Assembly: GCA_030603385.1 (NCBI GenBank)
Contig: JAUVXW010000002.1
Span: 64,001 to 128,000, forward strand
Source of the DNA: Promethearchaeota archaeon
GTDB taxonomy: Archaea > Asgardarchaeota > Lokiarchaeia > Sigyniarchaeales > SOKP01
DNA: 64,000 nucleotides
Direction of reading: 5' to 3'
Part shown: positions 19,412-51,819 of the stretch, piece after piece
Position numbering within the stretch: the first letter of the stretch is position 1
How the letters are laid out: each line of letters starts with the position of its first letter
Translations under genes and position numbers: made by a program
Notes under the pieces: generated by a model
Told to the model about the DNA's origin: nothing
Databases searched by the model: none
The model's input: only the letters and a program-made list of their open reading frames with translations

Positions 19412-19513
19412 GGGCCTGTAATCTAGCCTGGATAGGGTGCCCGGCTTCGGATTTCTCTGAAAGAAGAAAAAGAAGAAACTGGGATGTCGCAGGTTCGAAT
19501 CCTGCCTGGCCCA
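19412..19513 (+). tRNA. tRNA-Arg(TCG) with a 27-nt canonical (37/38) intron
   Basis: Anticodon stem CCCGG/CTGGG, loop CT-TCG-G|A; BHB helix CTTC/GAAG; intron 19451-19477; T-arm GCAGG-TTCGAAT-CCTGC. Confidence 0.9.
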
Positions 19514-31146: not shown

Positions 31147-31239
31147 TGCGCCGCCCGGGAATCGAACCCGGGTTACTGGCTGACTTCAATCGGTTCTGAC
31201 TATGGAAGGCCAGAATCCTAACCCCTAGACTAGCGGCGC
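31147..31239 (-). tRNA. tRNA-Gly(TCC) with a 21-nt canonical intron
   Basis: GCGCCGC/GCGGCGC acceptor, CTGGC-CTTCCA|A-GCCAG anticodon arm, BHB CTTC/GAAG, intron 31182-31202. Confidence 0.93.
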
Positions 31240-47685: not shown

Positions 47686-47937
47686 TTGAAAAAAAACTGG
47701 GTTAAATTAAATCTATTCTATATTGGAAAATCTAAAAAACATCAAATCTTTAGAGCAAAACAGTGGAATAGTAACTTTGAAAAAATACTCAAACAACCTG
47801 TTTATAATGAAAAATATGAAAAAATTGGTTATATTAAGGATATATTTGGTCCAATTAACATACCTTTCATTTCAATCAAAGCCTTGCCTAACCAACTATT
47901 TGACCGCAATGTAAAGGTTTATACTAAACTAGCCTAG
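47686..47937 (+). CDS. gar1: Gar1/Naf1-like H/ACA RNP protein
   Basis: KIGYIKDIFGPINIPF; upstream of tfb as in other archaea. Confidence 0.75.
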   Translation: MKKNWVKLNLFYIGKSKKHQIFRAKQWNSNFEKILKQPVYNEKYEKIGYIKDIFGPINIPFISIKALPNQLFDRNVKVYTKLA

Positions 47938-50205: not shown

Positions 50206-50700
50206 ATTCACTTAGTAATAACTTACTTTAACCAAATATTAGGACCAAGTGTTTTGTTATCTTATCCTGATGAATTGTTAGAGGAAAATCTCATAAATAA
50301 ATTAAAAAAGTTTTTTGATTTAGAAATTGATGAGACCTTCTTCGAAATAATCCTTATTACTAAGAAAAAGAAAATTATCAATTTTCATTTCGAAATTCCG
50401 TCTAAGTGGGCACGTGGGGAAAAGGAGGATGCCATGCTCTCCCTAATAATAAAGAAAGAATATGAAAGTTCTCAATTTTATGCATTTCTAGTAGATTCAT
50501 CGTATAAAATCTTAAAAACTGAAAATGTGTACAAAGCTTTTTATAAAGATGATGAATTTCACGATAATGATATTGAAATTGATATGACGTATGAAATAAT
50601 AAGAAAAATTCTTTTTAACTGTGTATCAAGTCTTATATTACGGATAGAAGATAAAATTAAAGGAGTAGATAAAAAAGAACCGTTTCCTTTCTCTTCGTAA
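50206..50700 (+). CDS. uDENN/NPR2-type longin-like protein; ATT start
   Basis: N-terminal IHLVITYFNQILGPSVLLSYP (FxxxxGP..YP motif) lies upstream of the first TTG; GGTGAG SD at 50195-50200. Confidence 0.65.
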   Translation: MHLVITYFNQILGPSVLLSYPDELLEENLINKLKKFFDLEIDETFFEIILITKKKKIINFHFEIPSKWARGEKEDAMLSLIIKKEYESSQFYAFLVDSSYKILKTENVYKAFYKDDEFHDNDIEIDMTYEIIRKILFNCVSSLILRIEDKIKGVDKKEPFPFSS

Positions 50701-50707
50701 TGAAAAT

Positions 50708-50717
50708 CTTTATAATC
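50708..50717 (+). promoter_or_regulatory. TATA box (CTTTATAATC) preceded by a purine-rich BRE-like stretch; candidate promoter of the downstream ncRNA
   Basis: Lies ~25 nt upstream of the 5' end of the structured element. Confidence 0.4.
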
Positions 50718-50737
50718 TTATTTTCCTATTATAATAA

Positions 50738-50936
50738 TGGGAGAACAATGATGGAATAAACTGCGTTTTCGAGGACTCATACGACTAAAAAATGAGTATG
50801 CAGTGCAAAGTGACGCGAAAATTCGGAGTTAATTAGTCCGTTATAATCCTGTACAAATGGGCTCTTAGTCTAGCAAAGGTGATTACCAAAGCGATGAAGC
50901 TTGAGTCAGTACGCAGGAGACATGACTATGTTCCCA
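50738..50936 (+). ncRNA. Candidate structured non-coding RNA of unknown family
   Basis: GC-enriched convergent intergenic region with no ORF; four nested helices (TGGGAGAACA/TGTTCCCA, CTGCGT/ACGCAG, GACTCA/TGAGTC, GACTAA/TTAGTC). Confidence 0.55.
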
Positions 50937-51063
50937 ATAGCGCATAGAGATTTTTGCCTAGCACGAGAGAACATGTTTGATTTTAAAGGTATTTCCCTAA
51001 AATGAGAATATAGTGTTAGTGTCATTAGGCGAAATCTATGCCATTTTTTAATATTATCTTAAT

Positions 51064-51819
51064 TTATTTTTCTTTTTTAATTAGTGAGAGAATGTCATTG
51101 TATGAACCCAGTAATTCCCTAACATTTGAATTATTTAATCCCTCAAGAGGAGTACCTTCAAAAGCAATCCTACCATCGTTTAAAACCAATATTTTCTCTG
51201 CCCAATTTTCAACAAAAAATAGATTATGTGTAGTGAAGAAAATTGTAATGTTATTCTCTTTTCTTAACTTCTCAATAATTTTTAAATGATTATATATCGA
51301 TTTAAAATCAAGGTTAGCAAAAGGTTCGTCTAATATTAGCAAATTAGGTTTCATTACTAAAACTCCTGCTAATGCTGCTCTCTTTTTTTGACCCCATGAA
51401 AGGTTAAATGGTGAATAATTTCTAAAATCTTCTAAATCAACTGCTTTCAAAGCCCAGCTAACTCTTTCCTTTACTTCGTCATCACCTAATTTTAAGTTTC
51501 TTGCTCCAAAGCTGATATCTTCTTCAATAGTTGGCGCAAAAAGTTGATCATCTGGGTTTTGAAATAAAAAACCAACCGATTGTCTAATTTCCCATAGATC
51601 TCGTTTATTTCTTGTAACATTTTTCTCAAAAATCCTAATTGAACCAGATTTTGGTTTCAATAATCCTACTAATAATCTTAATAAAGTTGTCTTACCTGAT
51701 CCATTATTTCCTGTTAATGCATAAATTGAGTTGTCTTCAATTTTAAAAGAGAGATCGTTAATTTTAAACCGATTATCATAGCTAAAATTTAGATTTTCAA
51801 CTTCTACGGCAAAAATAAT
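51064..51819 (-). CDS. cbiO: ECF (Co/Ni) transporter ATPase CbiO/NikO; ATT start
   Basis: Walker A GNNGSGKT lies upstream of the first TTG; FQNPDDQ, LSWGQ, LDEP; AAGGTG SD 7 nt before ATT 51819. Confidence 0.9.
   Translation of the reverse strand: MIFAVEVENLNFSYDNRFKINDLSFKIEDNSIYALTGNNGSGKTTLLRLLVGLLKPKSGSIRIFEKNVTRNKRDLWEIRQSVGFLFQNPDDQLFAPTIEEDISFGARNLKLGDDEVKERVSWALKAVDLEDFRNYSPFNLSWGQKKRAALAGVLVMKPNLLILDEPFANLDFKSIYNHLKIIEKLRKENNITIFFTTHNLFFVENWAEKILVLNDGRIAFEGTPLEGLNNSNVRELLGSYNDILSLIKKEK

Follow-up and report, generated by a model that had tools for sequence, protein, structure and literature searches.

The RNA gene, its surroundings and its spread

The window, i.e., the whole stretch of 64,000 nucleotides analyzed here, contains a gap at 50701–51063 flanked by convergent genes: a 148-aa ORF on the forward strand, ending at 50700, and a gene coding for an ABC-transporter ATPase on the reverse strand (51064–51660). 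No ORF of at least 40 aa was found in 50701–51037, and the GC content across the gap amounts to 39–45% vs. 16–30% in the surroundings (100-nt windows). A TATA box (TTTATAA, 50709–50715, +) is located ~27 nt 5′ of the inferred start at the first G; it is kept in an alignment of 30 genomes, in which the stretch from the TATA box to the motif GGGA is variable. These findings agree with the original prediction, which had described a non-coding stretch of raised GC content, situated between convergent genes and preceded by a TATA box.

The block conserved among the relatives is bordered by GGGA (50739) on its 5′ side and by UAUGCC (~51042) together with a T-run on its 3′ side. The T-run (51044–51049, +) can be read from the sequence as a probable archaeal terminator, and T-rich ends follow the last helix in the relatives as well. 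With its ends placed by conservation, not by mapping, the putative transcript, a candidate three-unit box H/ACA sRNA of ~305 nt, would cover 50739–51043 (+). The interval of the original prediction (50738–50980) was too short, since both conservation and structure reach ~51043.

The gene gar1, encoding a protein of the H/ACA RNP, resides at 47686–47937 (+; the Pfam Gar1 match at C34:111785–111925 corresponds to 47785–47925 of the window), at a distance of 2.8 kb on the upstream side of the guide RNA gene. In 13 of 16 genomes of the genus, these two genes stay within 2–3 kb of each other, in two layouts (upstream on the same strand; downstream and convergent), and the linkage is also present in a genome (G042) of another family of the order, f2. 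The genome encodes Cbf5 (418.6 bits), Nop10 (51 bits) and Gar1 (29.3 bits).

The RNA gene was detected by BLAST as a single copy in 33 of the 36 genomes of the genus and in 120 of the 135 genomes of the family, representing all 13 of its 13 genera, and nhmmer revealed full-length homologs in ~100 loci. The alignment built from them comprises 80 distinct sequences with 63–97% identity to the window. A covariance model restricted to the final 110 nt (the 3′ unit) led to homologs in the order's families f2 and f4, and the rebuilt model of the 3′ unit to homologs in ten further Asgard families; wherever the matches in other families were read, they turned out to be full-length homologs. Overall, the locus is a real, conserved and previously unannotated RNA gene.

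Certain weak model matches, i.e., those in the single-contig G044 and G050 and in the f2 genome G037, were set aside as apparently spurious: their alignments contain large deletions or many mismatches, and the matched region of G050 looks coding. Two deviating arrangements were encountered as well. In G117, a genome of the family, unit C alone is present a second time in degenerate form (G117:C17:42368–42471, L153:169–272, −; 52.6 bits), devoid of helix P10 and situated ~600 nt downstream from the complete gene. In another Asgard family, a two-unit version lacking unit B was found (G255:C13:54100–54600, +, L183), where unit A with its kink-turn clamp is directly followed by unit C inside a long outer helix.

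Fold and anatomy of the RNA

The folding energy of the single sequence was not better than that of shuffles on either strand (z −0.25 and −0.64), and Rfam gave no match on the region at the gathering score and chance-level matches only at E up to 10. The case for the fold is therefore made wholly by comparison with the relatives. The fold was derived from mutual information, helix scans, RNAalifold and inspection, and the result is fully nested. In the 5′ domain, 93.5% of the cells are paired vs. 85.0% after shuffling, and none of 500 shuffles reach any of the measures; 30 of the 42 pairs change on both sides, while slid controls pair at 26–36%. The 3′ domain shows 94.4% of the cells paired, with 0 of 500 shuffles as good. 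Whole helices (P5 and P10) are swapped for other complementary sequences in other families, and the substitution pattern is compensatory, not triplet.

The original prediction of a stand-alone structured non-coding RNA with its own promoter is upheld by this covariation-supported fold together with the conserved TATA box. The homolog and covariation searches it had proposed returned full-length homologs in ~100 loci (nhmmer) and strong covariation, for a fold other than the long-range one it had drawn. The helices of the latter (50761–66/50911–16, 50774–79/50902–07 and 50783–88/50865–70) are paired in 62.5% of the cells vs. a shuffled mean of 62.3%, the observed value being reached by 181 of 500 shuffles; because they score like shuffles, there is no evidence for the two mutually exclusive folds that had been built upon them. 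The supposed likeness of ACGACTA/TAGTCT to the P7 helix of group I ribozymes falls with these helices, since its pairing is among those failing the shuffle test, and a CGGA..UCCG hairpin proposed along with them is not conserved. Several smaller elements were seen correctly, namely the helix joining the 5′ and 3′ ends (GGGA/UCCC, 50739–42/50932–35), the local pairing with 50792–50803, which is a true helix (P4, 50778–81/50797–800), and the hairpin GGU-GAUU-ACC (50878–80/50885–87), which is real and covarying. No pseudoknot is supported: a pairing of GGGCUCUU with GAGAG or with GAGU (50826–29) was considered and rejected, as it lacks compensatory changes, and two sequences that alter GGGCUC keep GAGAG unaltered.

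As read from the alignment, the architecture is that of one module repeated three times, each composed of an outer helix, an internal loop bearing an ANA box, a lower stem, a second internal loop and a capped upper stem. In each module, the ANA box occupies the 3′ side of the outer internal loop and the cap is a kink-turn or a K-loop, the bulged strand (AAU-GA) of every cap being its 3′ strand. The ANA boxes sit in internal loops, 1–2 nt past the lower stem, instead of at a free 3′ end, because an outer helix (P1/Kt-1, P5 or P10) shuts off every unit; the outer helices (the NC stem of Kt-1, P5 and P10) come after each box.

Units A and B are jointly closed by P1, in which GGGA (50739–50742, +) pairs with 50932–50935. 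Its GGG/CCC pairs are invariant, the fifth pair occurs as C-G, A-U or G·U, and 3–6 contiguous pairs are present in 69 of the 77 parsed sequences. Inside P1, a canonical kink-turn, Kt-1, encloses unit A. Its bulged strand (50743–50755, +) consists of the C-stem GAAC, the AAU loop, GA, U and GGA and contains the box-C-like AUGAUGG; the non-bulged strand (50822–50831, +) consists of the NC stem UUC, the box-D-like GGA and the C-stem GUUA. The box-C-like AAUGAUGG (50747–54) and the box-D-like NGA (50825–27) are in this way placed between two covarying stems. The pairing partner reads UUC-G-GA-GUUA in the window, and relatives carry CUGA or CAGA. The ATGATG that had been remarked upon earlier as resembling a C box is the box-C-like strand of this kink-turn.

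Unit B is closed by P5 (50834–50839 with 50923–50928, +), paired in 98.9% of the cells, whose UAAUCA/UGAUUA is replaced in other families by AAACCG/CGGUUU, GAAGCUG/CGGCUUC or AUUUUC/GAAAAU. The 3′ strands of P5 (50923–28) and P1 (50932–35) follow each other within 50923–50935 (+). Unit C is closed by P10, in which GCAUA (50942–50946, +) pairs with UAUGC (51037–51041); its compensatory forms include GCGUGC/GCACGC (L074), GCGCC/GGCGC (G043) and GGUGCC/GGCACC (G039), and both strands are lost jointly in L027, L031, L066, L089–L094 and L100.

Unit A (50763–50821, +) comprises the lower stem H1 (50763–66/50813–16), the upper stem H2 (50775–81/50797–804) and a K-loop (50782–96). The putative 5′ guide occupies 50767–74 (UUUUCGAGG) and the 3′ guide 50805–12 (GCAAAGUG), with the box AAA at 50819–21 (+). 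Both stems covary, e.g., AU is exchanged with GC (38/33) and CG with UA (57/18). The cap is a K-loop of the form U-GA...AAU-GA-U; in L028 and L100, an inserted C-stem turns it into a full K-turn.

Unit B (50847–50922, +) comprises H1 (50847–51/50914–18), H2 (50860–64/50903–07 plus 50867–69/50899–901), a kink-turn (50870–72/50893–98, +) and a cap (50873–92). Its loop strands are found at 50852–59 (5′) and 50908–13 (3′; AGUACG, shortened in the clade of the window) and the box ACA at 50920–22 (+). Compensatory changes affect all five of the five pairs of H1, e.g., UA exchanged with AU (38/26), and the kink-turn conforms to GC-AAU-GA-R / N-[U/A/G]A-GC.

Unit C (50956–51034, +) comprises H1 (50956–60/51026–30 plus 50962–64/51019–21), H2 (50970–78/51007–17), a kink-turn (50979–80/51001–06, +) and a cap (50981–51000). 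Its putative guides are GAGAG at 50965–69 (5′) and UAGU at 51017–20 (3′), and its box is AAA at 51032–34 (+). Here AAC[A/U]/[U/A]GUU covaries (35/23) and GCCU/AGGC changes to GCCC/GGGC. The cap reads UUUU-GA / AAU-GA-G and is canonical in G043 and G039; a canonical kink-turn is seen in homologs from family f4. CAC/GUG closes part of the loop; in G039, this helix persists as GCAU/AUGC, and it must open if the guide is to pair.

Archaeal H/ACA sRNAs consist of one to three hairpin units, each with a pocket, an apical K-turn or K-loop and an ANA box (PMC3726423), with the target uridine 14–15 nt from ANA (PMC2377435). In the alignment, ANA is present in 80 of the 80 sequences for each of the three boxes, the count for box B including one read across an alignment gap. 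Box A occurs as ACA (63), AAA (12) or AUA (5); box B as ACA (62), AUA (16) or AAA (1), apart from the one read across the gap; and box C as ACA (57), AAA (22) or AUA (1). The distance from the start of the 3′ guide to ANA equals 14 nt in 77 and 15 nt in 3 of the 80 sequences for unit A, and 14 or 15 nt in 76 of the 80 for unit C. In unit B, the motif NACCC(A/U) begins 14 nt 5′ of the box in the majority of the 80 sequences and is absent from the nine sequences of the window's clade. This subclade (the window and the homologs L003–L007, L040, L041 and L044) is characterized by a 4-nt deletion (CCCA) in the 3′ guide of unit B, and in the same subclade boxes 1 and 3 are AAA instead of ACA. Taken together, the three units, their caps, the ANA boxes and the spacing of 14–15 nt are the defining features of archaeal box H/ACA RNAs and therefore point to an H/ACA guide.

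The stem lengths deviate from those described elsewhere. Active motifs of Pyrococcus have an upper helix of 5–6 bp between the pocket and the K-turn (PMC2377435), whereas the upper helices here amount to ~6–7 bp (A), ~8 bp with an internal loop (B) and 7–9 bp (C), although the rule comes from one genus and the base pair count depends on where the pocket is considered to end. The lower helices, of 4–6 bp with a spacer of 1–2 nt, also differ from the search descriptor of PMC2377435, which asks for a lower helix of 7 bp or more with ACA immediately adjacent.

Predicted rRNA targets

LSU, SSU and SRP RNA were not matched in the window's assembly (G000, 94% complete), though its relatives have them; therefore, the targets were tested on the rRNA of other genera of the same family, the donors being G065 for the LSU and G063 and G095 for the SSU. 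The first scans, with the pockets drawn too small, gave nothing above shuffles. With the pocket edges redrawn by the 14-nt rule and every uridine scored, i.e., with 2146 combinations of uridine and geometry in one LSU and one SSU of the family, rank-1 sites emerged. Unit A of the window ranks first of 2146 at LSU 2717 (z 6.2; GCGGCUUGC-UU-CCUCGAUGU), where 4 + 6 pairs form around UU of the target 5′-CUUGC-UU-CCUCGAU-3′. Unit C of the window ranks first at LSU 2144 in helix 69 (z 6.0; GAGUAACUA-UAA-CUCUCUUAA), with 4 + 5 pairs around UAA of 5′-ACUA-UAA-CUCUC-3′ in the non-canonical UNN geometry. The same two sites were obtained with the rRNA donor's own RNA. By our own alignment to the E. coli sequence, LSU 2717 is presumably equivalent to E. 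coli 2496, beside the peptidyl-transferase center, and LSU 2144 to E. coli U1917 in the loop of helix 69. The UNN geometry has been reported as functional for Pab19 (PMC2377435).

In most relatives, the 3′ strand of unit B pairs with GCUGGGUU-UA, which puts U2586 at the target position; the 3′ guide forms 5–7 pairs, the 5′ strand is weak at U2586, and LSU 982 carries the same 9-mer. For unit B of the window, with its 3′ guide deleted, no convincing target is left among the scored uridines, and judging by this deletion, unit B of the window's subclade probably no longer guides U2586. Other candidate sites were discarded. The SSU site AUGGGUACUGAG, a 9-nt match to UCAGUACCC, was rejected as a target of unit B, as GUA is not conserved beyond the genus and the target position does not hold a uridine, and LSU 1221–1225 was rejected since the matching guide strands are not conserved.

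Some peculiarities of the rRNA itself were observed as well. Helix 69 in the LSU of G065 (L108:3630–3660, ~LSU 2130–2160) reads GGGAGUAACUAUAACUCUCUUAAGGUAGCC, which is matched by the invariant GAGAG of unit C; it is a stem of the eukaryotic type (yeast GGGAGUAACUAUGACUCUCUUAAGG), whereas bacteria and most archaea have GGCCG/CGGUC. The LSU of G095 (L157, G095:C16, −), a member of the same genus, ends immediately behind the loop of helix 69 (GGGAGUAACUAU|GUCGCAUG), beside the predicted target of unit C, at an insertion inside the helix, so that it gave no confirmation of the CUCUC strand. Many SSU genes of the family are cut at the model positions 496/497 and 828/829. These interruptions of the rRNA genes, in the LSU of G095 and in the SSUs, are probably rRNA introns.

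Relation to known guide RNAs and alternative readings

The sRNA Pab40 of P. abyssi contains three motifs, of which motif 1 is assigned to 23S position 2588 and motif 3 to position 2016, the latter being modified in nearly all organisms (PMC2377435). Afu4 and Pf7 share the targets of motifs 1 and 3 of Pab40, and motif 2 was reassigned to the equivalent of P. abyssi 2678 (PMC2377435). Pab40, Pf7 and Pho40 (Thermococcales) as well as Afu4 (Archaeoglobus) resemble the Asgard RNA in combining three H/ACA units in one RNA, each unit displaying an apical K-turn or K-loop and an ANA box 14–15 nt from the target. The numbering of the two species was related by an offset of 92, which we assume from the pairs P. 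abyssi 2549/2672/2697 and E. coli 2457/2580/2605, so that 2588 would correspond to 2496 and 2678 to 2586. Under this conversion, which is of our own making, the three units would therefore address the targets of Pab40, Pf7 and Afu4 in the same order, i.e., 2588 by unit 1, 2678 by unit 2 and 2016, in helix 69, by unit 3.

We regard it as highly probable that the locus codes for a ~305-nt box H/ACA guide sRNA with three units; the RNA would most likely represent the Asgard ortholog of the Pab40/Pf7/Pho40/Afu4 sRNA, as argued from its architecture and from the targets shared in the same order with Pab40, Pf7 and Afu4. In such a particle, L7Ae would bind the kink-turn or K-loop atop each unit, and Cbf5, Nop10 and Gar1 would dock on each lower stem and ANA box. 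The two strands of each internal loop would base-pair with the 23S rRNA sequences flanking a uridine, and Cbf5 would isomerize this uridine to pseudouridine. The predicted targets are the equivalent of E. coli 2496 beside the peptidyl-transferase center for unit A, U1917 of helix 69 in the UNN geometry for unit C and, in most relatives, U2586 for unit B. Rather than a new type of molecule, the RNA is a further example of the well-known three-motif H/ACA guide RNAs. The original prediction had suggested a new Asgard family and proposed a comparison with Rfam; no family match was returned, and the novelty is nonetheless removed by the anatomy and the predicted targets, which place the RNA with the three-motif box H/ACA sRNAs (PMC2377435).

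The Asgard RNA also differs from the Pab40 group. The Asgard RNA is without detectable sequence or covariance-model similarity to Pab40, Pf7 and Afu4; in particular, HgcG (RF00064, a model of 276 positions) gave no match in the window's genome at E up to 10, nor in the scan of the region. Each Asgard unit possesses an extra outer helix, with the ANA box in an internal loop; the upper helices are extended and the lower ones shortened; a box-C/D-like kink-turn clamp is added around unit A; the GAGAG of unit C faces the strand CUCUC of a helix 69 of the eukaryotic type; and the guide of unit B is lost in the window's subclade. It is conceivable, albeit rather doubtful in our opinion, that the Asgard form makes up a structurally distinct, "clamped" H/ACA particle with four L7Ae sites, units shut by outer helices and upper helices 1–3 bp over the Pyrococcus rule. 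If so, the geometry or the assembly of the RNP would differ from that of the crystallized archaeal RNP, possibly representing a step towards the K-turn-independent eukaryotic snoRNP. Comparison of the homologs also indicates that single guide units are gained and lost between lineages, with the guide of unit B deleted here and the whole unit B absent in one other family.

The only Rfam near-match was yeast snR46 (RF01253), aligned over 50760–50880 with 15 bits (E 2.7), the gathering score being 43 bits. The RNA snR46 guides Ψ2865 of 25S rRNA, equivalent to E. coli 2496, i.e., the same rRNA position as predicted for unit A, and we attribute the weak match to a similar guide sequence for this position. 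Unlike the Asgard RNA, snR46 is a eukaryotic two-hairpin H/ACA RNA without kink-turns, and with a match far under the gathering score, the RNA described here is not a member of its family.

Some structural peculiarities of the Asgard RNA lend some weight to a different reading, namely a structural or chaperone RNA bound by L7Ae, which carries H/ACA-like modules without guiding and acts as a cofactor of rRNA folding or processing, in the manner of snR30/U17, or as a scaffold of another RNP. A plain guide needs neither the extra closing helices nor the fourth kink-turn, the upper helices exceed the Pyrococcus rule, CAC/GUG largely closes the loop of unit C, and unit B is retained in the window's clade despite its deleted guide. 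Yet we deem this reading unlikely, since the spacing of 14–15 nt to ANA is kept in nearly all sequences, the invariant loops are exactly complementary to rRNA around known pseudouridine sites which came out top-ranked, and the three-motif sRNA of Pyrococcus serves the same sites. Another possibility is suggested by Kt-1, which combines consensus features of box C and box D with a closing stem: it could also recruit Nop5 and fibrillarin and guide 2′-O-methylation, making the RNA a composite of box C/D and H/ACA types similar to eukaryotic scaRNAs. A C/D box motif attached to an H/ACA sRNA has been reported for Pab21 and Pf1 (PMC2377435), and these RNAs, as well as the eukaryotic composite C/D-H/ACA scaRNAs, resemble the Asgard RNA in having a box C/D-type kink-turn joined to an H/ACA unit. 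In the Asgard RNA, by contrast, the C/D-like motif encloses the H/ACA unit and leaves no free methylation guide: the stretch of ~12 nt lying 5′ of the box-D-like element is made up of the 3′ strand of the lower stem of unit A and its ANA box and is thus unavailable to a target. Archaeal C/D sRNAs, in which the C and D boxes form a terminal K-turn and D′/C′ boxes are added, have a guide spacing of 12 nt, whereas the C-like and D-like elements are ~70 nt apart here, with the intervening sequence folded into unit A. With the C/D-like K-turn present and a free guide absent, a composite RNA seems very improbable.

We give hardly any credence to the notion that the locus holds a decayed protein-coding gene or else a divergent RNA of the RNase P/MRP-like or SRP type. 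The size of ~300 nt, the resemblance of GGGCUC/GAGUC to the P4 core GGCU/AGUC and the lack of an SRP RNA match in the own assembly would be compatible with it. On the other side, a canonical RNase P RNA is encoded elsewhere (C26:124759–125079, −; 129 bits), the relatives carrying the guide RNA have SRP RNA at separate loci, and the RNA shows no supported pseudoknot, no ORF and compensatory, not triplet, substitutions. The RNase P/MRP reading, prompted by the P4-like GGCU/AGUC, the GARAR-like GAGAG and ACAAAUGGGCUCUUA, was rejected in view of that other locus and because the ACAAAU part is not conserved; the SRP reading, prompted by the absence of an RF01857 match in the own genome, was rejected on account of the separate SRP RNA loci of the relatives. 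The locus belongs neither to RF00373 nor to RF01857, in line with the original prediction, which had found no likeness to tRNA, 5S, SRP or RNase P RNA and is here joined by the lack of any Rfam match.

Provided that the three-unit H/ACA guide is the proper reading, it closes a gap in annotation: the guide RNAs of Asgard genomes, which do encode Cbf5, Nop10 and Gar1, are absent from Rfam and missed by standard pipelines. A guide with three motifs, directed at the same three sites of 23S rRNA in the same order, appears to be common to Thermococcales, Archaeoglobus and Asgard archaea, and it can therefore be argued that the RNA and its putative pseudouridines are of ancient origin; eukaryotes, too, modify two of these sites, namely E. 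coli 2496 and helix 69. The clade-specific loss of the guide of unit B offers a natural experiment on the role of the respective pseudouridine. The alignment and the covariance model represent a ready tool for the annotation of the gene.

Two further RNA genes of the window were treated differently by the annotation programs. At 19412–19513 (+), Rfam reports a 102-nt tRNA, probably containing an intron, which ARAGORN does not list; at 31147–31239 (−), an odd 93-nt tRNA with a four-base anticodon call is reported by ARAGORN and not by Rfam.
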